Below are positions 7,323-47,895 of a stretch of 64,000 nt of DNA, one piece after another; positions within the stretch are counted from its first letter, which is position 1; the number at the start of each line of letters is the position of its first letter. Under the pieces are notes generated by a model, which was not told the origin of the DNA, ran no database searches, and was given only the letters and a program-made list of their open reading frames with translations. The position numbers were made by a program, and so were the translations under genes. The stretch spans positions 806,001 through 870,000 of the forward strand of contig OZ237742.1 in NCBI GenBank assembly GCA_965178125.1, read 5' to 3'. Source of the DNA: Bilabrum cf. latius. Its lineage: Eukaryota.

Positions 7323-10300
7323 TCATGGCAGAGCACCCGACCCCGTAGTCGCAGAACCGTCCCCCACAGCCGATGCCCCGACAGCAGAAGGCACCACCGA
7401 CCCACCGTCTAGCCCGCCTGCTCTCATGCCCCCACCCACGGCCGAGAGCCCAGAAGGCTTCAGGAACGTGGAGCCCCCGGAACCGCCCCCCTATTGCTGG
7501 GACGGCGATGCGCCGCGGCCGCCAGCACCTGCCCTTGCGGAACCGGAACCGGCGCCGCGCGCTCCCACGAGGCTGTCTCGGGGCAGGCTGGCAGAGCTGT
7601 GACGGTCATCTGCCACAGAGCCTGGGCCGTCAGGCAGGAGCTCATTGATCCCGGGCCCGCCCACGACAGGCGACATGGGCGCCCCGCTGATCTCCGAAGG
7701 TGTCTCCATGTGGGCGACGGTCAGGGGGCCTCCCCCCGGGGGCGCCATTGCGCCTACCGGTGGTGGAGGCCGCATGGCGTCCTCGCCGGTGGGCGGTTCC
7801 GCTGTTGCACCAGCACCAGCACCAGCACCTGCAGCGTTGATGGCAAGCATCGCTGTGGGCAGCGGCCCCCTGACCGCGGGATACCTGACGGCAGAGGCGC
7901 TCTGGCTCGCGGCGCTGGCGCTGTCGTCCATCGCGTGGGGGGAAGACGCGAGACCCGCCACCACGTCGGCGTCGGGGACTCCGACGCCGGATGCCTCAGA
8001 ACCGCGAACGAAAGGGTCAGTCACGTGCACTGCACTCGTCACACCGGCACCGCTGCTCCCACTCGCAACTCCGGCAGAGGCTCGGGCGGGCGGCGGTGGG
8101 GGCGCCATTGCTACTGCTTGCTGCTGCTAAACAGCCGAACTAGAGGCCGTGTGCCCAGCGGTTTGCGCCTCCGCCGCTCGCGCCACCCTGCTCGACACGA
8201 CGGCTGGTGCTGCTGATGCCCAGGGCTGCAGCTGGCTCGAACCTACGTGGGCGCCAGAAGCACCCGATACCACGCTCACGCCGCCGATACCCCCGGGCAG
8301 CTATCCTTGAATCGTAGGCACCTGCATACCCTGCTGGATTGGGCCAGCGTTCACAGAAATTGTCCCTGCTACCATAGGTATACTCGACTGGGGCACCGGA
8401 CCGTGTCCAACTGTAGGAACTTCAATTTCATGGCTGCTGTGCCTTGGTGACAGCAGGGCAGGCGTGCTCGCCGTTGGTGTGCCGGCCGGGTAGCTGCTGC
8501 CAGGGACCGTCCCGGTGACTGCGGTGGCGGCCTGGTCTGCGCGACTGGAGCCGGCTAGAGCCTGGGATGAATCGCCGGTCCTTGGGGCTTTCGCATTCCT
8601 TCCGCCAGAATCGCCAGACGCGATCGGGGGGGGTACCTGGTCGGTTTCCCTCGGCCGTTTGGATCCCACGCGGTGGTGCTTGCTGCTGCTGCTGCTGCTG
8701 CTGCTCCTGCCACTGCTGCCGTGCTTCTTGCCGCCGCGCGACGATGATGATGACCCATGCCTACCTCTCCCGCTTGCCTTCCCACTGCTGCTGCCACTCT
8801 TCCTCTTCAGCAGGTGCGGAGCCAGCGCCTGCGCCTGCAGCTTGAGCGTGTCGTTCTGTGCCGCCAGCGCACCCAGCGCCTTGTTCATTAGCTCGGTGTC
8901 CTTTCTGGCAGCAACTGCGTCTTCTTCCATGCGACGGATGGCAGCAGTGGCGTGAGATATAGCGCGAGCTGCAGCCAACGCGGCCTGTCCCGCAGCCACC
9001 GCGGCACTTTGGGCGGCAGCCGGATCCATCTGGTGAGAGTCCGGTGCTGACGACCTGCTGCTGTCGTCTGGAATGCTGGCATCGAGCTGCATACCGTGCT
9101 CGTTCCACCGCGTGCTGTGCCCGGCTTGGCTGGTGCTGCCCCTCCTCGACCTGCTCCTGCTGCCGCCCCTGCTACGCTTCGAGCTGCCCTTGCCCGACGG
9201 CCCGCCGGTGCCTGTGGTAGAGTCAGACTTGACGGACCCGCGGCGGGAGCTTCGGCTGCGATGAGTTCCGCGGCCAGACCGCCTCGAGCTGCCACGCGAG
9301 CTGCGGCCACTTGACCTCCCGTCCTAATCCTCGTCCTCGTCCTCGTTCTCGTCTGCCTCGTTGCTGGAAGCGCCCCGACTGCGGCTCCTGCTCCTGCTCC
9401 TGCTCCTGGTTACCGGGCCCTGCTGCCTGTTGGCGTTTGCTTCCTTGCCGATGGACCCGTCCGTGGCGCGGCGACTCCCAGACGCGTGGGTGCTCGGGTG
9501 GCCGCCTGCTCCGCTCTCCGCGGCGCTGCCACCCGCAGTGCTGTTCTCGGCCTTGCCTCCGGATCCCAAGTGCCGCGGCGTCATGGCCGTGCTGACCGAT
9601 GGCCCGTCCCCACCAACCGACCCGCCGCCGATGACCAGCGATTCGGCGCCCGTGGCAGAGGATGCCAGCCTGGCCTGTAGATCGCTGGTACCCGTCAATC
9701 TCCTGGGGAGCTCTGCGCCGCCCCTGCCCCGGGATCCCCTGGAAGCCGCGCCATCGCTTGTCTGGTGCGCGGAAGACGCGGCGTCCGAATTCCCGCCAGC
9801 AGCGGCCGTGTGCGCAGCAATGATCGCCTGCGTCGCATCCACGGCCGCCGAGTTGCACAGGCTTTCCACCGCTCCGGGCGCGCCCGCGAGGGCAGCCGAC
9901 ACCCTGGATGCAGCCATGTCCCTGGCCCTAGCCTGCACATAGTCCTGCACCGCCTGGGACCTCGTGTCTCTAGAGCCCGTGTTGTGGGAGCCAGTGCCAC
10001 GAGTGGACGAGGAAGCTTGTGACGCGGTTCCTGCGGCCCCCGTCTCCACGTCAGGTAGGATGTCTGGCCCCGCGCTGTTGATGGCCTGGTTCATCGCATC
10101 GAGCTCGGCGACCGCTCTGTTCAAAGTCTCCGCGGGGTGAGCGCCGACCGCTCTCACCACCTCTACGGCGGCTTGTCTCACGGCCACGGCGGCCGCAGCC
10201 ACCTGTCGCTTCGCCTCCGTGGCCATGTCTTCCGTTGCCATGGAGGAGGCCGCCCCGCCCGACCTCTCGCTCGTGCTCATCCTGTCCTTGAGCTCCGCAG

Positions 10301-13300
10301 CACCGCCGATGCCCTGGCTCTCTAGGAGTCCTAGCGCCCCGTGGATGTTCTGCTGAGCAGCCTGAGGGTTCCTGCCAGACGACATCAGGTCTGCCGGTGG
10401 TGGAGCGGGGGCAGGCGACGGTATCTCGCCCCTTGCCTCCACGCCGACGATCACGGGGGGCGCGCTCCCCGCCCCGCTGTCGGTGGTGCCGCCCTCGCTA
10501 GCAGCCGCGATGGATTTCGCCGGCTCGGAAGGCACTGCCATGGACACGCTCCCTGCCGCAACGGCTCTTCCAGAGCTGCCGCCTCCTGAATTTGAGGCGT
10601 CGGCTTCTTCGCTTCGCCTGCTTCCACGCCATGAGGCATCAGCGGACGGGTCGCTGCCGCTGCCGCCCTCCTTCTTGTCGCTGCCATCATCGTCCCGCAT
10701 GGGCACCTAGCCCCCTGCGGCACCGCCGGACTGCTCTTTTCGTGCGCCAGAGTCCTTGGACCCTCTTCGACTGCGTGAGCTCCGAGTCGATCGTCGTGCC
10801 GAACCAGTCGAGCCAGAACGTGTCCTTGTGCTAGGTCCGGCAGCATGTGAACGCTCTGTGCCCTCAAGCACGTCATTTTTCGCATCTTGCTATGTGTTTG
10901 CGGCGTTGCTGGAGGACTCCGCTGCAGCAGACGACGCCGAGGATGATGAAGAAGTGGGCTGCTTATCCTACCCGCTCGAGCCCTCCATACGCTGCTGCCC
11001 TGCCTGCTTGCCGTTCCCTCCCTTAGGTGCAGGGCCTGCAGCATCGCTCTCCTGCTGCTGCTGCGCTCTTGAGTTGCTGTGCCCTTCCGGCGGACTGCAG
11101 CTCCGCAGGTCTGCCACATTGACCATCATGCTAGAGGCGCCCCCGTCCACGACAGCCTGCAGACTGCCGTCTTTCATGGTCAGTCTGAGCTGGATGTCGA
11201 TGGGCAAGCTGACCGTCGTGCCATTGTAGTCTAGCTTGATAGCCAGCGGCATCGTCGTGGCGGTCGAGTTGGCCGCTGCCTCCGAGCTGGAGGTGGATCG
11301 AGCCACGCTGGCGGCGAGCTGCTGCTGCAGACCTTGCTGCAAAGCCTGCTGAAGTATGGGCTGCGGGATGACCGGGGCCGGCCCCGTGGAACTCTCTCCG
11401 CTCGCCGTAGGAGACTGTGCAGAGAGCCCCCCTGCGTGCAGCGTTGCCTCCGTGGGGTCGTGTCCGGGGGGCAGCTCCTGCTCCTGCTACCTCTGCGGCG
11501 CCTCTAGCGCGGACCGTCTCTCATCCAAGGCAGAGCCGTCCGCGGCGCTCATGTAGTCAGGAATGGCGCCCTCTGCGGCAAGCTGCGGCGTAACTTGAGA
11601 GCTTGCGTCGTGTCTCTGGTTCTGGTGCTGCCCCTGCCCGGCCCTTCTAGCGGCAGATCTGTGTTCCCCGAACGAGTCCACAGACACAGCCAAGTCGGGG
11701 ATCTCCTGGTGCATGGCTCCAGACCCGCGAGTGCGGTGGTGCATCTGCTGCTGTATCTAGTACTGCTACATCTGACGGTTCCCTTGGACAGATCTCCCTG
11801 GTGGCATGCGCACGCGGCCGCTAAACGTGCCAGCACGCGCACCTACTTGCTGTAGCTGTCGAAACTGCCCTTGCCCTTGCCCCTGCTGTCCCTGTGGCCT
11901 CGGAACGGCATGCTGTTGGTGTGCTAGGCCTCTGGAGTCCCCTGAGTTCTCGCGAGGAGACATGCGCTCCTGCTGCTGCTGCTGCTGCTAACCGCCATTG
12001 TTCCCTGCGGCCGCATCCAGCCTTGAGAGGGGTCTCCCGTCGCGTGCCTTACTGGCGGAGTGTCCCGTGCCGTCTGCCTTTCTGTGCTTGCCCAGAGACA
12101 GCAGCACTTCCGATGCCACTGTGTCATCGTCACCACCCTCTTCCTGCCCGCCAGGTCCCCCAGAATTCTGACCGTGCGGCTAGCTGTGTGATGGATGCTG
12201 CGGTTGCAGTGAGACCCCCTGTCGCTGGGGCTGGAAGCGCTGCTGCTGCCGCTGCTGCTGCTGCTGCTGCTGCTGCCCAGCGTTCCTGGTCATGATTTGA
12301 TCTGGCGGCGGAAGCGATGCCGGCAAGGAGTGCAGATCATCTAAAATGCCCAACTGCGATCCACCCGCGCCCCTGGACCCCATCCCATTTCCATTTCCAT
12401 TTCCAATACCATTCCCATTTCCGGTGCCGATCTGCCCGTAACCATGGCCCATGTTAGGGGGAAATGGTCCCGCCGCTGCCCCGCCAACCCTCCCTTCCTG
12501 CCCGAGCATCGAGCCACCCGCGACAGCTCCCTGCATCCCAGAGTGAAGGCTTCCTGGCGCCATGGGTGAGGCCGATGCGGAGGCCGATGCGGAGCTCTGC
12601 ATGGCCGGGACATACGGGCCCTGGGTGGCAGCACCCATGGGCGGGGACTGAGAGAACACAGTATGGCTGACGGAGACGCCGCCCCCCATCCCAGCCCCCG
12701 CACTCCCGTGCCCGCTCATACTCATACCGCTGTGCCCTGCCGCTGTCTGGGGCACTGATGACCTCCTTGGGGGGAGGGGGCCTGGCGCCCCTACCAACTG
12801 CCCGATGCTGCTGCTGCTGCTGCTGCCGGACGTGTGGGGTCCGCTGCCGCTGCTAGTGAGATCCCCGCTTGTGGAGACGCCTTGGGTAGGCTCGAACATG
12901 CCCCCGTTCATGTCCCCGCCCCTGTGCCTCCCATCCATCATGCCAAGGGGCAACTGCTCCTGCTGCATCATCCCTCCCGTTCCTGCTCCCGCATCCATGG
13001 CCCATCGAGTTGGGCTCTGACCAGAGGAGGACCTGCCAGCCTCCTGATGCTGATGCTGGGCCATGGCCATCGAGCCAGCCTCCTGATGCTGATGCTGGGC
13101 CATGGCCATCGAGGCTGCGGCCTGGAAATGATGCTGAGTGAATTGGGCCGGGTGAGAGGAGCTTCGTTGCATCGCATTGCCGCGCTGGTAGGGCTGTTGC
13201 CCCGCGGGATACCCTCGGTGAGTCGAGTGGTACTGGGCTGCTGAGAGCCTCCCCTGCGCCAATACCTGCTGGCCTCCCTGCGCCTGTGGGGGTCCATCGT

Positions 13301-14442
13301 GCAGCCCGTGCACGAGGTGCGCCTGCATGAGCGCCGGGCTGTTCCCCCCTCCCTGCGCTCCGCCTCCCGGAGCGCCCAGGGTCGGCCCAGACGGCCAGCC
13401 AGCCATGCCGCCTGCCGGTGCTCGCACACGCGGAGGATGCCGCACCGCTTCAGAGGGCCCGAGCAGTGCCGCGTTGGATGAAGATGAGGACATGGCGTGC
13501 ACGGCAGCGGCTTCTAGGATGCCGGCACGGCCAAGCGGCTGGCTTGCAGGGAGGCCGGCGAATCCTCCAGGCTGCAAGCCAGATACTCCGGGGCTACCGG
13601 CAAGTCCCATCGGCGAAGGAGCTGGCTTTCTGGCTGAGGTTTTCGATCCAGAAGCGGCTGCAATGTGTAGGGGGGTCGATGCCGTCGCATAGAATCGAAG
13701 CGTCAGCCATTCGCACGTTGCACCACAGGCACCAAAGGAATCCCGGGACGGAACAACGCCAGTCTCTTACCTTGCAGTCGTTTCTTGCCAGTTTGGTTCG
13801 TTTTGCGAACCACAAGACAAAGAAGGTCTGGCTTCCCTTGCAAGAAGGAGGGATGAGCGTACTCATACCGTCCCGTCTTGACCTTTGGATCCCCAACCCG
13901 CTCAAAGCTGCGATAAGGGGTATGCGTAGTAGGACGAATAGTATAATGAATGCACCACGAAACGCGTGTGGCCCTCTGATGCTCCCGAGCATGGCTGCGA
14001 CGTCCAATGCAAGTAAATCCCGCCCAGGTCGACCGTTCGCGGCCAACATATCAGCTCATATACAAGCAATATACACAGTCTCGTTGACTCCTTGGTACAA
14101 TCGCACTGCATCTGTAAAAACTTACCAGTAGAAGTTCAGCTGCCTTGTAAACGAGCTAAATTGCCGATGACTGTAGTACTTTGGGAGGACGACCGAGCTG
14201 AATTGCTTGCGATCTTCTATTACAAACGACTAGCCACCCTGACCCCAGTGAACAAGATTATCGCAATCATGATCATCAACTAAACTGTACAGTGACCTGA
14301 GAAATGCAGACACGGGCCTGTGTGTCAGCTTGGGTACGGCTTCGGCTGAGATGACCGATGGCCCCCCGGCACCTTTATCGTCCCCTGCTTGGCTACTGGA
14401 TCCGCCTGATCTTTTTGATGATTTTCGACTCCTAGTAGGCAT
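7323..14442 (-). CDS. Heat-shock-factor-type DNA-binding domain protein with a very long Gln/Gly/Ser-rich C-terminus (~2,300 aa); intron ~13908-14126
   Basis: AFLRSLY...VHWGQGG(TAG)SFVI...LPKYYSHRQFSSFTRQLNFY|.FER...EYAHPSF.QGKPDLL..VVRK. Downstream ORFs ending at 12180, 11766, 11487, 10968, 9324, 8301 and 7491 are all in one frame and separated only by TAG. First TGA is at 7323-7325. Confidence 0.8.
13036..13113. repeat. 39-bp tandem duplication in the HSF CDS (SMAMAQHQHQEAG x2)
   Basis: ccagcctcctgatgctgatgctgggccatggccatcgag occurs twice in a row. Confidence 0.85.
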
Positions 14443-14595
14443 GGTGTCTAAACCAGGTACGAGAGCCTAGGTGCGTCAGTGCACGGCGGGCCACTGCGAG
14501 TGTTCCACCGCAGCGGGCTTGCGACCACTGGAACACAATGGGCAAGCCAGCGAAAGAAATTTGATGTGAGGCTCATACCTAATAAAATCCTGATA

Positions 14596-15843
14596 TTAGA
14601 AGCAACAGTTGCACAAACAACCAAATGCGACCCCTTTCATGCGCAAAGCAGGGCGCCCGGCTATGCTAGACCCGGCTCGAAGCGCCGCAGGCTCTGCTTC
14701 AATGTCCCCAGGCTTCTCAGGGGTAACTCCTGTCGTGGTCAATACCGCTCTGATGAATACTCTTTGCATTCGAAGGCCAGACTTTCTATTCCTTGACTCG
14801 ACGCATGAGTATCGGCAGCACCAGCTGCAGTGTCGATCCGACTGATCGCCTAATCTCATGCCAACCAACCCAGCTTCGGGTGTAGGCGGGGCCACACTCA
14901 TCTTCGCACTGCAGTACTTGTCACCCGGAAGCACGACTTTCAGGCTCGGGGTTCTGCTCGATGCTTGCGGGTGGCCATCAAGTGCTGCCTCAGACACCGT
15001 TTGCAGGTGCATACGTGTTTCGTCCCTAGGCTCCCACTCACCACATATGCACCTTTCTGCTTGCCTGCACAGCGCGACAAACTCTTCGAGGCTGAAAAAA
15101 TGCGTGAGGGTGCCATCAGGGCGCGCGAATGATCGCACCAGCTACCCCTCCCACACGCCGACGTCCCTGCCACCGAGCTAGTCGCGTGGCTCTGACGCGC
15201 TGGTGGCTTCTTTGGTCGCAATCGGGCCTCCTCCCAGCCCCTTGGCATTGCCACGGATCATCGCATGATCCATGATGCCGTAATCACGGAAGCAGAGGAT
15301 ACCCCCTGGTGCCAGCATCGCGAGCATAGCACCCAGCGCGCAAGGATGCTGCGCATCGGGGATCGCTGATAGAACAAAGGTGCACAAGACGGCATCAAAC
15401 TGCCCGCGCAGTGTGTGTGGAAGTGCTTGTGGACCTTTCGCGATATCAAGTATGCGAAAGCTTGCCGCACCCGGCGCACAAGCAGCTTCACATTGCTTTA
15501 TTGCAGTTTCTGCAATGTCAGAAGCCATACTTGCCACTCCCTTCAGTTTAGATAGCAAGCCCATGCTGGCCCCATTGCCAGCACCTAGCTCGTGAATTCG
15601 AAAATCACGGATTTGCCGAGATGAAAAATGAGCCAGCAGCCTTGAACGGAGCTCTGGAAAGCCAGCTAGCAAGCTATTGCGAGGCTGGAAAAACAAGCCT
15701 TTGCCATGCTGCCGATAAAACTTGTCCCACGCATCTGAACGGGCCACAGGAAACACTTCTGAGCATTTAGTTTCAGCTTCAAGGGGTGCCGTCGTCTGTT
15801 TCGGTGGAAACTCGAAATCTGCTTCGTAGTATCTTGAACTCTG
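14596..15843 (-). CDS. SAM-dependent methyltransferase, METTL2/METTL6 (tRNA m3C)-like; 5' end uncertain
   Basis: WDKFY...FFQPR..L...FPEL, ELGAGNG, FVLSAIP, GGILCFRDYG..D.AM.R and RPDGTLTHFFS. TAGs at 15178 and 15142 lie inside the domain; ends TAA 14596-14598. Confidence 0.8.
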
Positions 15844-16080
15844 AGTACTGGCAAACAGGCGGCTCTACTCCATATGCGCGCATCGAAACCGCAATAAATG
15901 GTCCTATTTGCAATTGCAATGCTAGCTTAATTCATTCATTACCATCAATGCATGATTTCGACCGCAATCACAACTTTGCGGTTACGGTGCTGATGAATCT
16001 AGTGGTGATGTAGAGAAGCAATCCAACGATCCGGATCCATCGACTTGGTGGCGCACTGAGTGGCGCACCAGCCTTCGAGA

Positions 16081-19000
16081 TTATGCGGGGCCAATGGCAC
16101 CCATCTACTCGGCTGCTATGACGCCGGGCATGGACTGGATGAACTGGACTGCCCGAGGAATGGCTTGTCGGGCCCTTGCGAGCTCCACAGCCCGCCGGCG
16201 AGCGGTTGACCGGTGCGGCTTCCACCCAGGCCGGGGCCGACTTGCCTCCGATAGTTGTGGCGTTGGCAAGCGCCCAAGGTGGAGTGAGTGCCTGGGCTTC
16301 TCCGTGTTTGCGGAGCTCGGTCCCTCGGCATACGGGACCCCTGCATGCTACTGGTGACCATAGGGTTGTGAGCCGAGCCCTCCACCCCCTCCCACTCCCA
16401 TCATGTTTCCCTTGCTATCAAGTTTGGCCGCAATCGCTGGAATGGGGCCTCGGGTCGAGTAAAGAATAGAGCGGGGCCTCGCCTAGCCTCGCAGCATGTC
16501 CTTGTAGATCTAGGCTCCCGCACTCGTCATATTAGGAAGCACAAGCGTTCGTTCCTGCTTCCTGTGCTTGACAATAGCCTCGCAGTCGCTCTTGCGCTTC
16601 CTTGCTGCTTCCAGCCCGCGGCGATACCTCACCTTGAGGTCCTCGACGCCCCAGTGAGCCATGCCGCCGCGGATGAGCTGCTGGTCCGCCCGACGAGCCG
16701 CCGCTTTCTCCTTTGACAGCGTCTGAGTTGCTTCATCCATCCGTGTTCCGTGTCTCCCCTGCAGCTGGTGCGACCGCAGCATGGCTGCCCTGCCCTTTGA
16801 TGCCAAGTAGGAGCCGCTCGCGTGCATGCCACCTACGGGCAATCCCAGCGAGTCGTAAACAAGCGCAGTCAGGCCGGTGTGGATCGCTCGTCTAGGACTG
16901 TGCTTTGACGCGCTGTGCGCGCCTGACTCACGACGGCTTGATCTGCTGGGCAACCACCTGGTCCTGTGCCTGTCGCCATGGAAAAGTCCAGGCATCAAGA
17001 GCGGTGAGCCCAGAGCATGGACGGCATCGAGCGCATTGGCAGCATCGAGCGCAGAATCGGTCTCCCAGCCTGAATCATCCTATTGATCGGTATCCGAGAT
17101 GGGGGACAGGCCGCTCCCAGCCTTGTCCATTGCATTAACTCGTTGTGGTTGCTGCTCCTTCGGTTGGCGACTCTGCGACGGCAGCCGAATGTCTCTCTGC
17201 GACATGGCGTGCTCTGTGGTACCGAGCAAGAGGCCGTGCCTCGAATGCCGTATGCTCGATGTGATCCCGTAGTTGCTCCCTGCCTGCATCGCATTGGCTT
17301 GTTGAGGCGCAAGGCACTCCTGCTCGCTCATGTGTCCGGGTTTGTGATGCACGCTTGGTGCTACTGGAGCTGTAAGCAACCCGTGGGAGCCTCCCGCGAT
17401 GCCACTCGCGGAGCCGTTGTCTTTTCGGTTCAGACCAATGCGCGCCTCTGGCTATGATCGTCCTTCATTGGTAATACCATGCAGCTCATCGCGTGCGCTA
17501 TCCCTGCCCTAGCTGTTACCTTCGCTTCCAGAGTCGCTGGCGCCGATGTCAATGTCTGGCAGAGCATCGCCAGACCCGGGGATCGGAAGCAGCGAAGGGG
17601 AGGAAGCCATCCGTTTCCGCACGAAGGGGACACGCGCACCACCGGAGCGCGATATTTCAGGACTGCCGCTCTCTGTGTCAGAGAACATTGAGCCGACCGT
17701 AGATGATCTGCTCCTGCTGCTTCGCATTGGCGAGACCGGCCTCATCTGCCGAACTGCGTTCAGTGCTGCAAGCGCGATGGGATTACTGACAGCACTGAGC
17801 CTTCGCACGTTCTTGCTCAAGTGCTTTGCATTGAGTGCCTTTGTCTTTCGAACAGACCCTGCATCGCTTCCGTTGTTGCCGTCAAAGTCGAGTGACGGAA
17901 GGCTGGCAATAGATCTACTTGGCAGGCTTCCTACGGATCCGAGCCTACGCCTGCCAACGTGCACGTGTACGAGCTGCTGGGGAGGAGAATCGTGGCTTGT
18001 GTCGCCCACGGCCTAGATTCCTAGGGGGTCGGACCGGTGGAGTAGGCCGTGGGGCTGTCGACCCAGCACGAATCCGCTGTGTCTGCGAGTACGTGGATTC
18101 GATCGCAGCTGACGTGCAGCAACAGCAGTAGCATCAGGAGGTGCAGGTGCATGATTGGCTCCACGGGGCCTTTCCGCCCGTGCACCATCGATGCTACGAG
18201 GAGAATCGTGGCTTGTGTCGCCCACGGCCTAGATTCCTAAGGGGTCGGACCGGTGAAGTAGGCCGTGGGGCTGTCGACCCAGCACGAATCCGCTGTGTCT
18301 GCGGGTACGTGGATTCGATGGCAGCTGGCGTGCAGCAACAGCAGCAGGTGCAGGTGCATGATTGGCTCCACAGGGCCCTTCCACCCATGCACCATCGCTG
18401 CTACTGCTTGAGCTTGCTGAACTGGACCTGTACGTTGGCAGAGGTTGATTTTGTCTTCCTGGAACACGAATCTTAGACGGCGGGGATATGCGAAGAACGC
18501 CGGGCGATCCCACAGGTGACGCGTCGTTCTAATGCGTCAAACCGCTAGTACCCTCCTCGATGCCACAGGCGGTGGCAAATGCTGCTGGCTATTGTACCTC
18601 TGCTGCTGTTTGATCTGTCGCCCCATCCATGCGGTCTTGCCTCCCTTCTCCATTCGATTTCGTCGTTGCCGCGCTACTGCTCGAATCGACGCTGGACCTG
18701 TTGCTCTCTGCGGTCCCAGCAGCTTTACGTCCCTCTGTTTTGCTTGCAGGTGCGTCCCGTACCGAGCTAGAACCACCAACCGCGCAATGCACGTCTCCGA
18801 TTTGAGGTCGTCGGGCTGGCTTGAATCCCGGGGGTGCTTCAATCGTGCGCCTGCGCGGCTCCGTTGACCTCTTCCTAGCTACTGACTCGCTAGATGCCTG
18901 AGGGTCAAAGCCAGTGAACGCATCGATAGCATCATCACCAGCCAAGGGCTCGCAGTCCAGCAGTCTGCTTGCTTTCAGGGTTCCCTGGTCGTCAGCAATC

Positions 19001-21219
19001 ACGCCAGGGCCGTCCAAGGAACCATCACGAGTTACTCCAGAGCGACCGACGATCCCGTGGCGCTTTGATGCGCTCTATGTTCTCGTCTTTGATTTCCCCC
19101 AATGTCGAATCGGCGCAGTACTGCGCCATTCTTGCAGCTGCCTCAGCTGAGGGATGCTGCTGTCCTGCTCAGAAGCCCCGCTGGCACCGCCACCGCCAAG
19201 GCCAGAGGACGACACTGATGCGGAGCCCCCTGGCCTAGAAGGCATGGCCATTTCCTCCCAAAGAGAAATGCCGCCGTTTCCGCCTCCTGCATGCATGGGT
19301 TGGATCTTTCTCCTAGCGGGGCCTGGAGGCCGGCTGATCGCACGTTGCTAGGAAGCCTTGTGACCAGCCCCGAGCCAGGACCCGAGCCCAGTGCCTATTC
19401 CGATGGCATCGTCCAAGCCATGGTGATCCATGCCCGCCTCATCGTCACTACTATGGTTTCCGTCTGAACCTGGATGCTCGCTCCCTTCCATTGCCGCCTT
19501 TCGCTGCTCTTCCAGGTGCTCGACGAGCCGAGTTGTCACGCCGCACGCCTCGATCGCGTGCTTGAACACGTCCTCCTTGACCCTCGCGGCCACCATGGCG
19601 AACTGAGAGGCTCCCATCTCCCACACGATGCAAGTCGTCCTGGCTCTGTACTCGAGTAGAGATGGCCTCTCGAGGAGAAATGGCAGAGCCCCGATCGTGT
19701 GGCCGCTGCTGACGTCGCACAGCTTGCGCAGTTTTCGGTGGCGGGATGCAGAGGGCGGCCGACGCGCTCCGGTGCGGCGATGTGCCTTTCCGAGGGCGTG
19801 ATGCGCGTGATTCGGTGCCCAGATCTCTGCTTCGCCAGTTTGAAGCAGCACGATGCCGCTCGCCGGGGCTCCCTCTGCCAGGATTGTCGCGCCAGGGCTG
19901 ACTTTAACAGGCCGCATGCCCAGCATGAACTCCGTGGCCTGGGTCTTTGTAAGTCTTCTCAGGAATGGAAGCCTCAAGAACATGTTTAATCGATCGCTGG
20001 AGATGTCAAGGAGGTCCTGTAGAGGCCTGTGAATGTTGAAATCGTCCCTCGATATGGACAGGAGCAGGCAGGCGCTGAGGGCTCGAACGGTAGCCGTGCG
20101 GTGCTGCGACCTCGAGCGGAGCGCCAACTCCCCGAATGTCCGCCCTTCGTTGATTCTTCCCACCAGTCGATGACCAGGAAGGGCATGAAGCGCGTCTTGT
20201 CCCAGGATGCTGAAGGGCGACGACGGGCTGTCTACAGCTATGCCTCCCGCCCCGGTTCCATGATTCGATTCGGGCTTAGCAGACGCAGCAGAGACCTGTC
20301 TTTGCGACGGGACGGGCGTGCTTTCGCCATCGGTGTGATACATTGGACTGCTGCTCGCCTAGTCTGGGCCTCCGGCGTGCTCTACTAGTTGGCTCATCCC
20401 TTGGATTTCAGTGAGGGTTAGCTGGTGCGGCAGTTGCTGCGATTTGCCGCGGCTTAGCCGACTGCTGCGGCGCGGTGAACTATCTTTAGCTTGTTGGGCC
20501 GCATCTGAGACGGACTCGGTGGAAGGTTTAGGAGACTGTCCGGGCTGACGAGAGACGCTGCCTCGTCGGGAGCGCTACGCGCTGGCAGGTCTTGAAGCGG
20601 CTGGACCACCTGCTGCCGCCGAGAGGACCATTGAACCGCGACGCTAAGACAAACGGCGTCCGCCGGTTGCCCCTAGATGCATGCCCGATAATTTGCGTAC
20701 ACTCGAGCCTACCGCTGCCGCAAGAGCGGAATAGCACAGTTCTGCTTGTTTCAGCATATCCTACGCGGGGGCTCCAAGCGGCCTGCTCTCCGGAGAAACG
20801 TGCTGCCAACGATTGCTGGAATGGTTTGGCCCACTGCTGTCTTTGTGTCGCTCAAAGACGCCGAGCTACCCGGCCAAGACGCAAAAAAGCTTATCACCCA
20901 AGTCGCCTTGTTGGAACAGGCACGTCCCTCTGTCCAGTTTCACGAGCCCCAAAACTCTTGGTAAAATTTCCAAACAAGCCTTGTTTACCCGTTTCAAGAT
21001 TGGTATTTTGTCAAAGTTTTGCAGAAGCATCGTCTGAATGGCGTTCACATCTGATCTGCATCTCTGCTTCGCATCGATTGCCAGGGCTCCTAGAATACCT
21101 GGAGAATCGAATGCTTGCTCAAAGTTTGACTCAGTTTCCTATAATGAAGTCGGTAGCGTACTCATCTCATTCGCAGGAGCTTTGCGGGAGTTCCGTTGGC
21201 CAAGGTGAATCAAGGGCAT
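16081..21219 (-). CDS. Large cyclic-nucleotide-binding-domain protein (~1,700 aa); start uncertain
   Basis: LFQQGDLGDKLFCVLAG(TAG)LGV, GRTFGELAL...RTATVRA and a second CNB domain (ILAEGAPASGIVLLQTGEAEI). All minus-strand pieces from 21048 to 16510 share one frame and are joined by TAG; ends TAA 16081-16083. Confidence 0.7.
17984..18400. repeat. ~216-bp (72-codon) in-frame tandem duplication inside the cNMP gene
   Basis: ggagaatcgtggcttgtgtcgcccacggcctagattcct... starts at ~17984 and again at ~18200. The peptide GDTSHDSP is repeated. Confidence 0.9.
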
Positions 21220-21558
21220 GCTCCGCTCCGATCACTCGTCACGGCCGAGCGTGGCAAATCTGGATGCTTGCGGTCAAACGACCCGAAGTCTGCCTTGCCT
21301 GCAAGGCCACACTCATGCGGAAGTGAACTTGACCGAGACAATCATACTATGCAGCTATACGCAGGGCATGATGTAGCCCCGCCCCACTGGCAGTGCTGAC
21401 CCCCCCCCGACAGCTAGCGATAGCAGATGCTATCTAGCTTACCACCACATCGGGAGCCATAGGCTACCTTGTGATTCCATATAAACCACCAATAGGATAA
21501 CCCAACCATCCGAAAGGGGGGGGGGGCTGGCTGCACCTATCACCGACTCCCTGTAAGA

Positions 21559-23626
21559 TCAGGAGGCAAGGCCTCTCCCGGCCGCTGCTGCCCGTAGCCT
21601 AGGCCCCGATGATGCCCTTGCTGCGGTTTCAGCCCCAGTTCCATGCCAACCTCTCGTGCTTTCCACCTTGTCCACCGCACCACTGCCGCCTACACACGCA
21701 GGCGCCGGTACCTCTCCCGTGCCAGGCCCTCGACCCGCACCCGCACCCGCACCCGCACCCGCACCCGCACCCGCACCCACACCGGCGCGAGTCCGAGCCG
21801 TTGGATCTCTGTTAACTTGCTCCCAACTGCCGGAGCTGCGACGGGACCCGCTTTGTAGTGCAACTGAACTGCTGCCCGAAGCTACTGCTCCTGCTCCAGT
21901 GAAACTTCTGGTTGGCGAAGGCTACGCCCGCGCCCTACTGGCCACACTATCACCGAGAACCACCGCCCCTGCCATGCTCTTCGCTGAGAGAGCAGCGATT
22001 CTGGTGGCACCAGGGGCAGCCTCGCCCTCGCACGATGCGGGTAACCCGCTTGTCACAGGACCCTCGTTCTCTAAGTCTGCATCCTTCGAATCCTTTTTAG
22101 TCCCGACATTTCCAGGCCCTTCTTCCGCCCCTCTCCTGCAGCACCAGGCAGCGTCGTCAGTGGAGGCGTACCTCGGAATGGAGCGGACCCGAGCACGTGA
22201 TTGAGGTGGTGACCCGCCCCTGGACGACGACGAGTGCGGACGAGATGACGAGCACAGCACGCAGCTGGACTGCCGCCTGCCACCCTCGCCGGCGCACCAG
22301 CCGCTCTGGTCGTGCTCTGCGCCGCCAAGGTCCTCCTGTTCCTTGACCCGTTCCTTGTCGTCTACCGAAGAAGTTGTGCTCAAACTGGCATCGCCAGGCC
22401 GAGCTGCCATCAAATCAAACTCCAATCTGTCTGCGTGAATGCGGCGGCTGCACCGGCAGCCGTCGAAGGTACCGCCGCTCGACGTCGCCACGGAAGATGG
22501 GGCAGATGCTACGGGGGTCCGCACCTAGTCTGGTCCACCAGTGTGGGAGGCACCGCCGGACGCTTTGTGGCATGCTTCGCACCCTTCGCCCGGCGAAGCA
22601 TCCGGCAAACTAGGAGGAGACATGGAGCCGTCGTGCGCTGCCGCAAGCAAGTGCTCCTAGCCGAGTCCCTGGGCCTCGGCCTCGGTCTCGGCCTATCCCA
22701 AACCATGCAGACCAGCCTTCAGTTCAGAACCGCGCTCATTCCGCCTCCGTAGCTCGTCAACAAACCAATCATGCCTGTGAGGTGGAGATGTTAAATAAAG
22801 TAAGCAAAGATACAGCACGAATGGGTTCTCATTTGCACCACCGAATGCCTGCAAGGCTCCGAAATGCGCAAGGTGCGATCGAGCACGTCTCAAGGTGCGG
22901 GTCCCGCTCACTTGATGCCCGGGGGCCGAGACTCCGCGAATGCGGCCAAAGCATCATCAAGGCTCAGCTTGCACCGCTAGGTTAGATATGTCACTATCAT
23001 AAAGCCCGTTCGGTTGTAGCTATAATGGCAGTGAACGGCGACAAGCCCGCCGGGCGTCCTGGTTCTGTATCTATCAACCCTACGGTTGAACTCGAGCGTG
23101 TCCAGTTCAGACGGAACTACCTTTGACTGCGAAGAGCGAATATCAGCAGAATTTAGTGGCTTTTATTTGAACCCGGGATGCGATTTCTCATGATTCAACG
23201 CAATAAGAATAGTCCGTCGGGTTCACTCACCTGCAACAGCAGTTTCGTATGCTGCAGCTCCGGCACCTCGTCACTATATGTGCTCAAGCAGTGGTGGGAT
23301 AGGTCAATAACATATCTGACGCCTGGAAAACTGCGCTTGACTTGCATTAAGGTGTGATTCTCCTGCGAATCTCCGTCAAACGGCAGCTTCATTGGCAGAA
23401 AGAGCCCTCGAATCAATCCGCCAAACTTAGGAACCTTTTGCCACTTGGAAGGGTTCTTGAGTGGTAACTCGGTGTAACCACAAGGCGATTCAATCTACAA
23501 AATCTGAGCTCGACTTGCGCTTGAATGAAACGAACACATTCGTGCGCGGCTATGCATGTCATCTGGGCTGTCCTTGCCGGAGTCATCAGCTGCACTGCTA
23601 CCGGCCCGGGCTAAGCATGACTCCAT
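21559..23626 (-). CDS. Dual-specificity / RNA triphosphatase-like cysteine phosphatase (CX5R) with a low-complexity tail; introns ~23128-23230 and ~22776-22911
   Basis: KNPSKWQKV...FLPMK, VIDLSH, SKVVP, VAVHCHYSYNRTGFMIVTYL and FAESRPPGIK|HDWFVDEL. TAGs include 23495, 22977, 22693, 22525 and 21922; ends TGA 21559. Confidence 0.78.
21733..21780. repeat. Hexamer microsatellite (cccgca) x~8, encoding a Gly-Ala repeat
   Basis: Directly visible tandem hexamers. Confidence 0.9.
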
Positions 23627-23738
23627 CAACTCTGATAAAGACTTGTGAATGTTTCCGGTGGTTGCGTTGAGTACTGTTACCGCTTCAAGGTGCGAAACAA
23701 AGGTTGGCAAGCTTGATTTGTAACGTCTAATTACATCA

Positions 23739-26089
23739 ATGGAATGTGGTTTCTACGGCAACTGGAGAAGCTATGGTGCTACAGTTCTTGTACGTCTGAC
23801 ATAGGATTTCGTTTGCGCCCACAGCCTGAAATCTGAATATCTGCACTATAACGCTGCGTTGAGTCGTAGAAATGTCCTTCTCACCGTGGTTTAGAGTTAG
23901 AAATCCTGCTTGTATAGCCCGTACTGGTTGACCCGCTATTGCTGCATGCTGTCCAATTCTTGAACGTTGTTCCTTTTTGTACCGTCTCGCAGACTGTACT
24001 TTCGGGCGTAGGATTCTGGTCGGTGAGCTCATCTGCTGGTATTCGCGTGAACCTTAGCAGCACTACGAACACTTGGAGTACTGGACACCGCTGCGCCATA
24101 CTTTGCCGAATCGGAAACGCAGGATGCCTATGATCTGTTTGCAATCGACATTGTCCGAGAAGTGAGATCTCTAGCGCCTGCAACTTGATGAAGCTCTGGT
24201 AACTTTCTCAAACCACGCTTGGTCGCTACACCTTCGCCAATATCCCTTGTCTGTGCGCAGTCCATGGCCGACGACCCGTATCTTGGGGAGAACGACAGCA
24301 CAGCAACTGATTTGGCTCACAAAAAAACGCTTGTGAGCGTGGCTGCGCTGGTTGGGGCCGTGCTAGGACAGCTCATCTTCGGCATACTTGCTGACCGGAT
24401 CGGTCGCCGGGTGATTTTCGTCGTCACGATTTCTTGCGTGATCGTCGGTGCCGGCCTGTCTGCCTCCGTGGTACCTAGCGAGCACTTTAGTCCTTTCTAT
24501 CAGCTCGCACTGTGGCAGTTCATCATGGGATTCGGGTGAGGCGAGGGACTCAACAGCCGAGTGCGCTTGTTCTCATGCTCGGCACTCGGATTTTGCGCCC
24601 CGTTGGTGTGCTTCCATCCATCCATCGATCCGCTCGATGCATGAGTATTAAGACTATGTAACCCTCACACCAACCCCACCTGCTTGTTCCCTGGTCTCGT
24701 TGCCCCCCCCGCAGGATCGGTGGTGAGTACCCCCTAAGCGCCACCATTTCCTCGGAGGCTGCCTCTACCAAGGACCGTGGAAAGAACGTGTCGCTAGTGT
24801 TTGCCATGCAGGGCTGGGGCAACCTGACCGCGGGAATGCTGGGATGGGCGCTGCTGAAGGGGCTCGAGCACCGCGACGTGGACCGCTACACGATCGTGTG
24901 GCGCTGCATGCTGGCGTTCGGCGGTGTCCCCGGACTGCTCACGGTGTACTTCAGGTACCAGATGGAGGAATCGAAGATATTCTCGAAGAGCCAGGGGCAC
25001 CCCGCAGAAGATGGAGGGGCGGGGCAGGACGCGGGCAAGGGGCAGGCGCTGCTCGCGGACCAGTCACTCGGTGGAGCCACGGCGATCAACGCGGGCTCGG
25101 GCGCGGTCGTGGCCCCAGCCGCCCCGGCGCAGGAGCTGGGGTGTGCGCGCACCATGTCGACGCTGCGAACCTTCGGCTGGATCCTCGCCGGCACCGCAGG
25201 CTCCTGGTTCCTCTTTGACGTGACGTTCTACGGCAACGCCGTCTTTGCCACCAAGATCATCTCCACGCTGCAGCCTATCGACGACGACGACACGCAGTAC
25301 GACAAGCTGCAGAAGCACGCGCTCAGCAAGTTCATCATCACCGCCATCGCGCTCCCAGGGTACTACCTCGGCGTGTTTACCATCGACGTGATCGGGAGGA
25401 GGTAGCTGCAAATGTTTGGCTTCGGCATGACGGGCGTGGTGTTCGCGCTGCTGGCTCTCTTCGCCGAGGACATGTCGCACAAGAAGCTCGGAGCTCTCGT
25501 GGTGGCCCTGTACGGCCTTAGCTTCCTGTTCGCCAACTGGGGCCCCAACACGACGACTTACGTGATCCCCTCGGAGAGTTTCCCCACGTGGGCGCGAGCC
25601 ACGTGCCACGGAATCAGCGCTGCATCTGGCAAACTGGGGGCGGTGGTGGGCAGCTTCGGGCTGGGCGAGATCATCGAGGCCGGGGGCAAGGGATGGACCC
25701 CTCTGGAGACAGTGCTGTGGATCTGCACGGGGGTGTCGGTGGCTGGGGTGCTGTGGACCTTCTTTTTCACCCGCGACATGTCGGCAGTCAGCCTGGAAGA
25801 CCTGGATGCGGGAAGGATCAACGGGCCCACCCCATCGGGGAGGGTCGTGCCCGGCACGCCAAAGCCTGGCAGCCTCTTCGCCCATGCGGATGTGGAAGCG
25901 GACAAGTACGCCCCCGTCTCTGATTTCCCAGAGAACAAGTCAGCCACCCCGGAGCTGAGGGATTCTCAGCTGTATGCCGAGGAGGCCAGCGGCAGGACCG
26001 GGCGGGCTGGAGCGGGTGGGCGCATCGAGATCCAGGGGGCGGGCCAGTATGGCAACGCGGGTGACTAGAGCAACAGCACCTACATGTGA
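23739..26089 (+). CDS. MFS inorganic phosphate:H+ symporter (PHO84/PHT1-like), 4 introns
   Basis: SGVGFWS|DAYDLF split over small exons, GQLIFGILADRIGRR, G|IGGEYPLSA, FAMQGWG, SWFLFDVTFYG and ANWGPNTTTYVIPSESFPT..RATCHGISAASGKLGA. TAG at 25403 (IGRR*LQ) and 26066; ends TGA 26087-26089. Confidence 0.92.
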
Positions 26090-26366
26090 ATGTGATTTGC
26101 GAGGCGCTGGGTTGACATGGGGTAGCGCATGGCCGGCGACAATCGATGCTAGCAGTGCTTATACTAGCACTTTGCTGGTGGGAGATTCTGGTGGTAGGGG
26201 TCGCCCCAGCTGTTTGTTTCCCCGTGTTTGGCCTTGCGTACTTGATGGGAGCTCTACTTGCGATTATTGAGCCTGTTATGTGTCATCTCGGATTCAGTTG
26301 TCATTTCCGGTTTTCGAGCATTCAGTGCCGTTGGGACTAGCCTTCATTTTCGAGTCTATCAGTGCT

Positions 26367-29300
26367 ATGGCAGACCGTTTGACACAGTTGTAGCATTTTG
26401 CAACGCGTCTCTAGGCTTTAGGCAATGCAGCAAATCGGCAAGAGGCTGACCAACTGACTAGTAGGGCAGTTGCCCTGTTGGAGGATTGCTTGCGCAAAAC
26501 CAAAGTTCCACTAGTTAGACAGGTTGTGTGCAAAACTGTGAATGAATGGTCTGCAATTGGGAAAATTCGCAGCTCTACATCAACGTTACAGAGCACTGCT
26601 CTCCTGGAGGCAGCGTAGGTTATCGATGAACAGCAGTCAAGACTCCTGTGCAGCTCACCGCTTTGGTCTGAAGGCGAGACGACGAATGTTGAGCTGCCGC
26701 AGCAACAGGGCCAAATTCATTCAGTCCATTCTATCAGTGGTGCACTGACTGAATCTCAAAGCCGCGACTCAAGCGCAGTTGAAGAGCAGTCAGTAACCTT
26801 TTCGCCTGCAACAGTGCTCGACACGATTCTATTCGATGCGCCAGACGACATCAATGAAACAATCCATGCTGCCCGAATGGTAATGAAAGTTGCGACTCAT
26901 CATGAGGCAGGCTTGCGCTGCGATGGCGGAGTAGCGCGAGCTGGCATACATGCGTCAGCCACATCATCAGCAGCAATCGACGAGCCCAATACCTCGGCAC
27001 GGCAGGATGAAGTCGCTTCAATGGTCGAGTCCATCAGACCATTCATAGCTACCTGTATGCGCCAGATTGAATCAAAGCGACCCAATGCAGCCGAGGATAC
27101 TGCCGCTGTAGTCCCACCAAGAGCCGGCAGGACGGACCGGATGGCTGTTCGGGTGGCGGTATGCTCGTGTCTGTTGTACCGTGCTATTCGATTTGCAACC
27201 GAATCAAGTGCTGTTAGTGGAAATGATGGTCTAACTGGAGTTGCCAAGAGCGGCAAGCCAACAGTACGCGGAGTATGCGGTTCAACAGCGGATCGCTTGC
27301 ACGAGCTATGCCATGGCATCCTCGACCTGATGCATTGCATGCATCAACACGCAGCTATGGCATCATGCAAAGCAATCAAATCAGGCCTAGTATCAAGTTT
27401 CGTCAGATGGTCCATCCTGACAGCGATGGAGGCGATCGCTGGGATCATGAATGCGTGGCAGCGATGGGAGCGATTGCTATCCTCACGGGACTCTACCGCT
27501 CGCCCCAAGGACACCAGCCTGCGATCAGGGGTAAATTCAGGCATTTGTTCCTCCCCTAGCTCTCCAGATGGAGGAGGAATGAGTCCCCGTGGGAACCTAG
27601 CTCACAAGGACGCCCTCAGCCAGTCGCTGTCGCAGGACTGGAGCCCAGTGTCCTTCCACGGGCTCGGACATGGTCGAAGCACGTCGCCGATCATTACTAA
27701 GGGCAGGCTGTAGAGGCCACCTGTCTCAGGCATGATTGGTAGCAGTGGTGCTCAATACGAGGATTTGGAGCGACGCACGAAGCGAGGGGGCAGGAGCAGT
27801 CCCGCGGCTGACGAACCGCTGGTAAAACTGCGGGCCAGGGCCACGTCAATGACACAGGCATGCCTTGCTGCGATTAAGAAGTCAGATGGAGACTTGGTTC
27901 TGCACATGACGTGGCTGTGTCACACACTGCGCCTCCGCGACGCTAGTCGACCCGCCATCGCCGATCCTGCACAGGACGAGCCGTCTGCATCTGGCACCTG
28001 CATGTCCGACAATGGTAGCATAGTAAACAGCGAGCCTCTAGACTCTATCCTTTCATCGCCACGGAACGCATAGTTCAGACGTGACCTACTGTCATCTGTT
28101 CCGAATGCGGTGGAGAGGCTGTATCGTGACGCGCAGGAGCAGCTGCAGCTCCTGAATTCCCGTGACCGGTCCAGCCGTCCACGCGCCAGTCTCCAGTCAA
28201 GCTCCCAGCAGCACCGCCCGCAGCTCCGTAGCCAGCTCTTTTTGACTCAGCTAGTTATCGCCAGAGTTGCGGTTCTGCGTCGCGCAGAGGAATCAAAGTC
28301 CCGAATGGTGAATGCCGCCGCAGCACCAGCCGACAAAGGGCAGAACCTAGGATGTGTCGACACACCAGTGACAGTACCAGACGACCTGTACGTGTTTGCT
28401 CTGCAATATTCAGCAGCGGCATACTGCTACAGGACTAGGCCAATGGATTTTGTTGCGAGTCCTTGCTATGCTTCGAATGTGCGTCAACTTGAACGACCTG
28501 CGAGCAAGCTCGAGCACAGCGGTGTAGTGCAAGTGGCCAGTCTCCCAAGCCATACACCTGAGCACCAGCAGCAACTGCCTGAGCGAGATGCTCTTCTAGT
28601 TGAGGTCAAACGGCTCAAGCTAGCACTGAAAAAGTCGAACCTGAGGGTGCTTGCCGCAGAGCAGAGCGCCCCCCTTTCTACCGAGGATATTCCTCCGGAT
28701 CGCGGATAGGTCGGTCAAAAGAAAGCCAGTTGCCCGCACGAGGCCGCAATTGCTCCTCGCTGCCGGATGCTGTCGACTGACAAAGGCGTAGCTGGAGCTG
28801 CCATCGCTCCATCTGCTAGCCTGCGCGCCGAGTCGAAGGCACCGACTCGCACACCGCGGTCGTGCCAGCCCGGGAGCTCGAGGAGAAGCATGGGGCGCAA
28901 GCATCTGCATGCGAGCTAGGTGGTTCCAACACAGCAAACCGTAGGGAGCCCCTACGTGATACCTGAGAGTGTCATGTCAGGCGTGGCTGCCCCCGACTCT
29001 CCAACGATTCTAGACTGCGTCATGGCTCAATTTCAGACGCCTGCAAGCGGCAGCAGAAAACTCAAAGCTGGATCATCACTTTGCAGTCGAGGCTCATAGA
29101 ATGCATCACAAATGCACGGCAGAGGGATGTAGGGAGAATCACTTGAGGCGTCGAGACTTGCAGGGGCATCTAGTGCGTCAATCGCTTCTAGTTCACCCGG
29201 ATTTGAGGGCAGCATCATGCACCGCACTGAGGACGAGAGCATGCTGCTAGACCTTGATTTGGACTATGATCCCGGTCCACCAGAGGCTAGAGAAGCTGCC

Positions 29301-29906
29301 GATGGGTGTGGTCCTCGGCAAGATCGCCGTGAGCCCAGGCTTTCGCGCAACTGTGATAGACAGAGCGATCCAGTCCACGTGCCACCGGACGCCGGTGCGG
29401 TGCGTGCTCCGAGACTCAAAGCAACTAGGAATGCAAGCCATAGTCAAAGCCCACGCGCCATGTAGCTGGCCCAAGACGAGATTGAGGATGCCTCGCCTGT
29501 TGCAGCAGTGAGTCCGGCGGCTGTGCGGCGAGTTACCGAGGGGTCAAAGAGGCCCACACTGAGTCCCCTGGCACAGTCGCTGCTCGTGTATGCAGAGAGA
29601 TCGGCCAAGAAGCCTGCCAAGAAAGTGAGGCGGAAACAGGCAGGGGCGGCAGCTACCAAGCAGCGACGGCGGCAGGCGAAAGGGCGAGGCCGATCAGAAG
29701 CATCCAGCTCAACAAAGGGATTCGGCGCTGAGACTCGCAACAAGAAGCAGCTCAAGCTCTTTAACGTACAGTCAAGCAAAAGTGGGTCTGTCGATGGTGG
29801 TACCACCAAGGTTGGAATGGTCAGGGGCAGGAATGGGGACCAAGTGGATGAATTGGCGCTGTTCACCTCAGGGACTGGCCAGTCCAAGCTGCGAATGGGA
29901 GTGTGA
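26367..29906 (+). CDS. Hypothetical protein (~1,180 aa) with a basic C-terminus
   Basis: One frame open from ATG 26367 to TGA 29904-29906, interrupted only by about 10 TAGs. No recognisable domain. Confidence 0.6.
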
Positions 29907-47294: not shown

Positions 47295-47895
47295 ATGGCA
47301 TCCGAAGGCGCTGCTAGTGGATCTGGAGCGGCTGATGGTAAGGCCGCGGGGCCTCCAGCTGCCGATGCTGCCGCCCCGGCAGATGACATCGTGAAGTTTG
47401 ATTCGTTTCAAGCTGACCTGGAGGGAAAGGTCACGGAAGTGAGTGCTGCTCTTATGCCGTACAAACGCGCTGCAATGTTTTCAAATAGACTTAAACTGTG
47501 TTTGTGGCCCATGCCTGCAGCATGCTGACGTTCTGCCCCGAGTTTGGCTCGCCGATCTTTGGATCGTCCCGTTGCGCACTGCGCGTGGCATCTTTCCAAG
47601 CTCTTCGCACACGCTTTTGCAGATTGTGAAGGAGGTTCTTGGAGAGAACGAGTACAATGCTAACATGGTGGCTGAGTGGAGCGGGAAAATCTCGGAGCGA
47701 TCGCTGGCTGCAGCGAGGGAGTGCACGGACTAGATGAAATTTGTCGTTAGCTGCCTGGTCCTCCAGCTGTCTGGCTCAGGAATGCACTCTTGCTCGGCTT
47801 GCTTTTGGGACAAGACCACAGACGGATGTGCAAGCGTAAAGGTAGATACAGGCAAGTGCTTCGCCGTGGTAAATGTCTTCGGCATGGGTGTGTAA
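47295..47895 (+). CDS. Dynein light chain, Tctex-1 family; intron 47440-47622
   Basis: IVKEVLGENEYN...V.EWS..I, D(TAG)MKFVVSC.V.Q..GSGMH..S.C.WD..TDG and FAVVNVFG. Ends TAA 47893-47895. Confidence 0.9.

Follow-up and report, generated by a model that had tools for sequence, protein, structure and literature searches.

What does the codon TAG mean in the 64,000-nucleotide stretch of contig OZ237742.1 that we analysed (hereafter the window)? The question is raised by a glutamine-rich (Q-rich) gene on the minus strand, whose long last exon carries in-frame TAG codons next to CAG. The initial annotation placed these TAGs inside poly-CAG tracts and read them as glutamine (Gln) codons, holding that the tracts supported this reading without any homology information. 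We found that TAG is, with near certainty, a sense codon across the window, and we have little doubt that its meaning is Gln, for which the evidence comes from the proteins of close relatives. The full code, in which UAG is read as Gln and UAA and UGA are kept as stops, is the reading that we strongly favour; it is a rare variant previously described in a small number of other protists, found here in an unplaced lineage.

In-frame TAG and the terminators

Under the standard code the longest stop-free frame in the window has 587 codons. When TAG alone is read through, the longest frames grow to 2147, 2037 and 1716 codons; reading TAA through brings almost no change in the longest frames. Across 18 coding segments we counted 94 in-frame TAGs in 14,393 codons, together with 488 CAG and 154 CAA, so that TAG, if read as Gln, would make up about 13% of the Gln codons. 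The frames that contain TAG match Pfam domains, including cNMP_binding, Sugar_tr, Ank, Tctex-1, HAGH_C, Peptidase_S28, ER_lumen_recept and others, and TAGs fall inside the Pfam-matched stretches of 11 gene pieces. Conserved protein-coding sequence in the window thus contains in-frame UAG, as in the Iotanema-type code discussed below, and it does so frequently in conserved genes that are covered by spliced contigs.

These contigs come from four sequencing runs, X5 to X8, whose RNA nature is a guess and is not on record. The runs match the window exactly wherever their long contigs cover it; the few differing letters (at 16225-16274, 17858, 18240 and 18256) lie near contig ends, and none is at a TAG. 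Contigs of X5, X7 and X8 skip short segments bounded by GT..AG, and the genes therefore contain a few short introns (Table 1). Two of these introns, 13658-13770 and 13908-14125, belong to the Q-rich gene; they read CT..AC on the plus strand and thus GT..AG on the strand of the gene. Accordingly, the true 5' boundary of the long exon is the splice site at 13657, and the open frame merely extends to 13766.

The long exon of the Q-rich gene is open over 2147 codons, whereas 23-31 TAA or TGA codons interrupt each of the five remaining frames over that span, and its openness is therefore not due to chance. The encoded protein is of low complexity, rich in Q, S, A and G, and it matched no Pfam family. 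Over this exon, contigs of X5, X6 and X8 cover 8722-12233, 11156-12233 and 11703-12027, respectively, with 0 differences from the window. The TAGs in these intervals are therefore neither errors of the window assembly nor edited in those contigs.

We assessed the other two stop codons in the same frames. Twenty frames end in TGA (13) or TAA (7), and none of them needs TAG as a terminator, although the sample is small. The 18 TAAs that TGA-delimited frames contain are located close to frame edges or at gene junctions: their median relative distance from the frame edge is 0.11, versus 0.25 for 100 TAGs (Mann-Whitney p = 0.002). A TAA ends the Tctex-1 gene directly behind its domain (Table 1), and in three of three cases the C-termini of related proteins coincide with the TGA of the window. 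UAA and UGA thus act as terminators, as they do in the Iotanema-type code. Together, these data suggest that UAA and UGA are probably the only terminators; TAA, which the initial annotation left out of account, is not reassigned here.

The amino acid specified by TAG

Three word-indexed protein searches and one exhaustive search yielded ten fragments from close relatives, which are 69-98% identical to proteins of the window. They represent the phosphate transporter (P0003, P0004 and P0005), the Q-rich gene (P0123, 95% identical over 722 aligned residues, and P0124, 92% over 188), the cNMP-binding-domain gene (P0125) and the frame at 26271-29906 (P0126-P0129). Apart from a metagenome contig described below, the relatives are known here by protein only. 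The fragments were made with the standard code: two of them end exactly at a TAG of the window and three at a TGA. Public protein collections thus contain the proteins of these relatives cut at TAG.

The fragments cover eight independent TAGs of the window, which stand opposite Gln in five cases and opposite serine (Ser), valine (Val) and lysine (Lys) in one case each; none stands opposite glutamate (Glu). A ninth TAG, at 9326, falls in an indel of the alignment. No fragment found in the homologue searches covers residues 561-1107 of the Q-rich open frame, and the four TAGs at 12182-11757 are therefore without orthologue evidence of their own. We then calculated a likelihood for each residue, with substitution frequencies drawn from the same close-relative alignments. 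Gln was the best assignment by at least 5 log10 units: Lys followed at -5.0 to -5.2, Glu at -7.9 to -8.7, tryptophan (Trp) at -9.0, tyrosine (Tyr) at -9.7 and leucine (Leu) at -10.2. At 25403, in the transporter gene, Gln is found opposite TAG in three relatives (Table 1).

The ends of the fragments carry further information. All seven internal ends of P0004, P0123-P0125 and P0127-P0129 coincide with NAG codons in the window (TAG 2, CAG 2, GAG 2, AAG 1). The chance that all five non-TAG ends would fall on NAG is about 4e-6, and these ends are therefore TAG in the relatives. When the fragment ends were added to the covered positions, Gln was still the best assignment, ahead of Lys by 6.4 and of Glu by 8.3 log10 units; Glu was then found at 2 of 13 positions.

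A second species is represented by L001, a metagenome contig of 7989 bases and 55% guanine plus cytosine (GC) that is syntenic with 19600-25850 of the window, the DNA identity being about 73%. The cNMP orthologue on this contig is open over 1171 codons only when 16 in-frame TAGs are read through, and the code variant is therefore common to at least this second species. A different contig of the same metagenome, L002 (10,972 bases, 72% GC), encodes a transporter 47% identical to that of the window; this contig probably belongs to another eukaryote with a still higher GC content.

Table 1. Positions in the window of the exons, introns and TAG or TAA codons discussed in the text.
Feature	Position	Strand	Details
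Last, long exon of the Q-rich gene	7323..13766	-	2147 codons; 12 in-frame TAGs; no TAA or TGA inside; ends in TGA
Upstream exon of the same transcript	13771..13907	-	contigs of X5 and X8 skip introns 13658-13770 and 13908-14125
Introns, examples	13658-13770, 13908-14125, 22774-22910, 23127-23230, 24535-24713		contigs of X5, X7 and X8
TAG (11990-11988), then six CAG (11987-11970), then GAG	11970..11990	-	in frame
ATG TAG CAG TAC TAG ATA CAG CAG CAG	11745..11771	-	in-frame TAGs at 11768-11766 and 11759-11757
TAG inside acidic GAC/GAG/GAT tract (EDEDED-x-D)	9324..9326	-	in frame; indel here in relative
TAG before CAG CAG CAA	8127..8129	-	in frame; opposite Ser in P0124
TAG after CAG CAA	7491..7493	-	in frame
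TAG, cNMP-binding-domain gene	20359..20361	-	Gln in P0125
TAG, cNMP-binding-domain gene	19348..19350	-	Val in P0125
TAG, phosphate-transporter gene	25403..25405	+	Gln in three relatives (98%, 84% and 75% identical); CAG in L001
TAG seven codons before transporter TGA	26066..26068	+	opposite Gln in P0003
TAG, frame 26271-29906	27711..27713	+	Gln in P0127
TAG, frame 26271-29906	29130..29132	+	Lys in P0126
TAG, frame 26271-29906	29463..29465	+	Gln in P0126
TAA ending the Tctex-1 gene	47893..47895	+	four codons past Pfam domain end (profile 95/95, residue 146 of 150; TAA is codon 151)

Several observations weigh against the code that we favour. Gln was found at only five of the eight covered TAGs (7 of 13 with fragment ends), which is below the 0.82 at which canonical Gln residues are conserved in the close-relative alignments, a comparison in which the TAG pairs presuppose a changed codon. 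Of the TAGs cited in the initial annotation, the one at 8129 is opposite Ser, and another TAG of the same Q-rich gene lies in a GAC/GAG acidic tract. In the comparison with L001, at 31-75% protein identity, 19 TAG pairs comprised Gln 4, Glu 4, aspartate (Asp) 3, Ser 3, proline 2, and Leu, isoleucine and arginine 1 each; Gln, Asp and Glu were within 0.3-1 log10 units, and Glu was marginally best where the local identity was at least 0.4. Likewise, when TAG was translated as Gln, Glu or Lys, the three residues for which Pfam bit scores were compared, the sums over 12 domain scores from 11 TAG-containing stretches were 794.7, 793.8 and 792.5, respectively. A scan of the window and of loci L001-L008 found no transfer RNA (tRNA) gene. 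Finally, the 20 frames may leave room for occasional termination at TAG.

From these comparisons, it is evident that deep homology, whether Pfam scores or an orthologue with protein identity as low as 31%, does not separate Gln from Glu. This weak discrimination fits the figure reported for Iotanema spirale, where just 44% of even the canonical Gln codons coincide with a conserved column dominated by Gln (PMC5304391).

One alternative is a glutamate codon. UAG has been reported as Glu in the ciliate PL0344 (PMC10553269), and in the window the Glu reading can draw on the E 4 and D 3 against Q 4 among the 19 pairs with L001, on the TAG within the EDEDED tract, on a Pfam sum only 0.9 bit under that of Gln and on the two relatives' fragments that end on GAG. 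The close relatives nevertheless speak for Gln: Glu has none of their eight TAG pairs and lies 7.9-8.7 log10 units behind, and both TAGs of the transporter stand opposite Gln at 98% protein identity. We consider a Glu meaning highly improbable. Lys, or another residue whose codon is a single step away (Ser, Leu, Tyr or Trp), is in our view exceedingly unlikely; one Lys pair, one Ser pair, one fragment end on AAG and, for Lys, the Pfam sum given above are set against likelihoods 5.0-6.4 log10 units under Gln for Lys and 9-13 under for Leu, Tyr, Trp and Ser.

Other alternatives concern the terminators or the frames themselves. Hexamitin diplomonads, many ciliates and dasycladalean algae use NCBI table 6, in which UAA and UAG both specify Gln. 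Reading TAA through as well does lengthen two frames of the window slightly: one of 2147 codons becomes 2179 and one of 1716 becomes 2251. However, the TAAs lie at frame edges or between the cNMP and methyltransferase genes, which have different Pfam domains; with the edge-distance test and the TAA four codons past the Tctex-1 domain, this makes table 6 very improbable indeed. In Condylostoma and in karyorelict ciliates, stop codons have a dual meaning, and UAG might similarly be sense inside genes and a stop near their 3' ends. Some frames do have a TAG 7-8 codons before their TAA or TGA, and only 20 frames are at hand. Yet none of these frames needs TAG as a terminator, and the TAG seven codons before the transporter TGA, at 26066, is opposite Gln in P0003; the C-terminal tail past it is conserved in P0003 and P0005, and this TAG is therefore read through. 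A dual meaning thus appears quite improbable to us. We found nothing in favour of, and give virtually no weight to, the idea that the TAG-containing frames are untranslated, as pseudogenes or non-coding sequence, or that their TAGs are removed by RNA editing or splicing: 2147 codons without TAA or TGA contrast with the 23-31 in every other frame of the span, relatives keep 69-98% protein identity, and contigs that skip introns elsewhere cross the TAGs unbroken and unchanged. Gln for UAG, with UAA and UGA as the stops, is thus the reading retained in what follows.

CAG tracts of the Q-rich gene

The TAG-containing strings on which the initial annotation relied are all present, in the frame of 7323-13766 and adjoining CAG or CAA. 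Their placement inside poly-CAG tracts holds only in part: the TAGs do stand beside CAG or CAA, but that at 11990 forms the 5' edge of the (CAG)6 run rather than lying within it, and the other three cited sites are in short Q-rich patches.

We therefore compared the neighbours of TAG with those of other codons, and found that the enrichment expected of Gln codons is present in the Q-rich gene and absent elsewhere. In that gene 6 of 12 TAGs touch CAG or CAA, versus 203 of 1984 non-Gln codons (0.10) and 56 of 151 Gln codons (0.37; binomial p = 0.0006). In the other 19 frames of the window, 7 of 83 TAGs (0.084) do so, versus 0.073 for non-Gln codons (p = 0.40). Window-wide, 16 of 94 TAGs have a CAG or CAA neighbour, versus 0.084 of all codons (p = 0.005) and 70 of 656 Glu codons (p = 0.056). 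When TAG triplets were counted in all three frames, 9 of 122 and 13 of 98 stood beside CAG or CAA in the shifted frames versus 13 of 95 in frame. These results demonstrate that the tract pattern is real in the Q-rich gene but is not a window-wide signal.

We did not retain the window-wide context test as support, as its effect comes from the Q-rich gene and one shifted frame gives a similar rate. A classifier based on neighbour profiles (the residues within 3 codons on each side) was likewise rejected: of 24 known codons, it put the true residue in first place for only 8, and Gln came 15th for CAA.

A TAG in a CAG run is tolerated there and is one mutation away from CAG; any tolerated residue would look alike. 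The proposal that tract context shows Gln without homology thus fails, given an enrichment in one gene only, a TAG in the acidic tract at 9326-9324 and a Ser opposite the TAG at 8129. The orthologues do bear out TAG as a Gln codon that differs from CAG by a single C-to-T change, through the five Gln among eight covered positions and the CAG found in L001 at 25403.

How might such codons arise and be read? The TAGs beside CAG and CAA in the Q-rich gene may be Gln codons that derive from CAG by a C-to-T change, or may persist as such. Cytoplasmic translation would read UAG as sense, most probably as Gln, and terminate at UAA and UGA. By analogy with I. spirale, the decoder might be a tRNA-Gln with the anticodon CUA or a near-cognate tRNA-Gln, and eRF1 may no longer recognise UAG, as has been proposed for that organism (PMC5304391; PMC9161772), in which a change in eRF1 (GTS to GGS) is reported. 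The window had no Rfam match, and its frames gave no Pfam match to an eRF1 family, no search having been aimed at eRF1.

Related codes, lineage and other features of the window

To our knowledge, only a handful of eukaryotes have reassigned UAG while retaining UAA as a stop. The Iotanema-type code was formerly listed as 'table 15'. In the nuclear code of Iotanema spirale (Fornicata), UAG is Gln, and UAA and UGA are stops (Panek et al. 2017, PMC5304391; PMC9161772). The window resembles this code in that UAG alone is reassigned, to Gln, while UAA and UGA terminate, and in that no gene of I. spirale, and none of the 20 frames here, needs UAG as a terminator. It differs in its terminators, which number 104 UAA versus 15 UGA in I. 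spirale (PMC5304391) and 13 TGA versus 7 TAA here, and in its GC content of about 60%. Moreover, the best named homologue of the transporter is from the stramenopile Cafeteria roenbergensis (46% identity) and not from a metamonad.

Other codes share single features with that of the window. In the phyllopharyngean ciliates Hartmannula sinica and Trochilia petrani, UAG is putatively Gln and UAA is the preferred stop (PMC11687900). The reassignment is thus, in that account, confined to UAG and directed to Gln as it is here; however, those organisms are ciliates, whereas we have a long, multi-gene, GC-rich chromosomal stretch with GT..AG introns, and the named transporter matches showed no ciliate affinity. 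In the rhizarian exLh (PMC5304391) and in three TARA phyllopharyngeans (PMC11687900), UAG is reported as Leu; there too UAG is decoupled from UAA, but here Leu trails Gln by about 10 log10 units. The window agrees with NCBI table 6 in reading UAG as Gln and departs from it in that TAA behaves as a stop.

We built a tree of the transporter, a single gene, by a quick method from 59 rows: the window, those of P0003-P0045 with at least 280 residues, and the named matches; all other unnamed matches beyond P0045 are left out. The window and P0003-P0006 form a clade with a support of 100, but this clade is joined to that of Cafeteria only weakly (87), and the lineage is therefore unplaced. In the limited literature collection that we searched, UAG as Gln was reported for no stramenopile, bicosoecid or GC-rich flagellate. 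We tentatively suggest, as a possibility on which we would not insist, that the window belongs to a clade of heterotrophic eukaryotes, rich in GC and poor in introns, whose use of a variant code has so far escaped notice and which may lie near the bicosoecid stramenopiles. At least two of its species would share UAG as Gln with UAA and UGA as stops, and the organisms behind the relatives' protein fragments very probably would do so too. If so, the rare UAG-only reassignment would have arisen independently once more, for the first time in that part of the tree, and several sequencing runs would already exist for such an organism. Every new UAG-only case tests whether the two UAR codons are mechanistically separable, and offers a natural model for changes in release factors and suppressor tRNAs. 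There is also a practical consequence. Standard-code gene calls on this genome and its relatives are fragmented; because the relatives' proteins in databases end at TAG, annotation must use TAG as Gln.

The window as a whole is best explained as nuclear DNA of a GC-rich, intron-poor eukaryote. A Pfam search identified eukaryotic genes for ankyrin repeats, Tctex-1, an RBBP4-type WD40 protein, a KDEL-receptor-like protein, Yip1 and an IBR protein, and there are further genes for MscS- and OSCA-like channels, a PHS phosphate transporter, glyoxalase II, phosphoglycerate mutase and peptidase S28. The cNMP-binding protein gene adjoins a methyltransferase gene, as judged by their Pfam matches. Genes are packed very tightly at 14126-16084: about 100-135 bases separate the TAA that ends the cNMP gene (16081) from the point where the methyltransferase frame (14596-15981), the next one along, starts, and the 5' exons of the Q-rich gene reach 14126-14470, near the 3' end of the methyltransferase gene.

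Several repeats are found in and around these genes. The gene at 16081-21231 on the minus strand has an internal tandem duplication of about 72 residues at 17800-18300, with a TAG at the same position in both copies; this TAG is therefore older than the duplication. Contigs of the sequencing runs break in this region, at 18011-18274. At 9320-9361, the (GAC GAG)n DNA of the acidic tract attracts a pile-up of many unrelated contigs from all four runs, with false joints that are a mapping artefact of the low-complexity repeat. A 300-base direct repeat (60948-61247 and 62842-63141, 96% identical) belongs to a larger duplication, in which the frames at 60788-62464 and 63024-63998 encode a nearly identical protein that matches no Pfam family. 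Lastly, 39202-40021 consists of a 30-base tandem repeat with 27.3 copies and 98% matches, which reads as an A/E/K-rich repeat on the plus strand and as AAFLAAASSS repeats on the minus strand.

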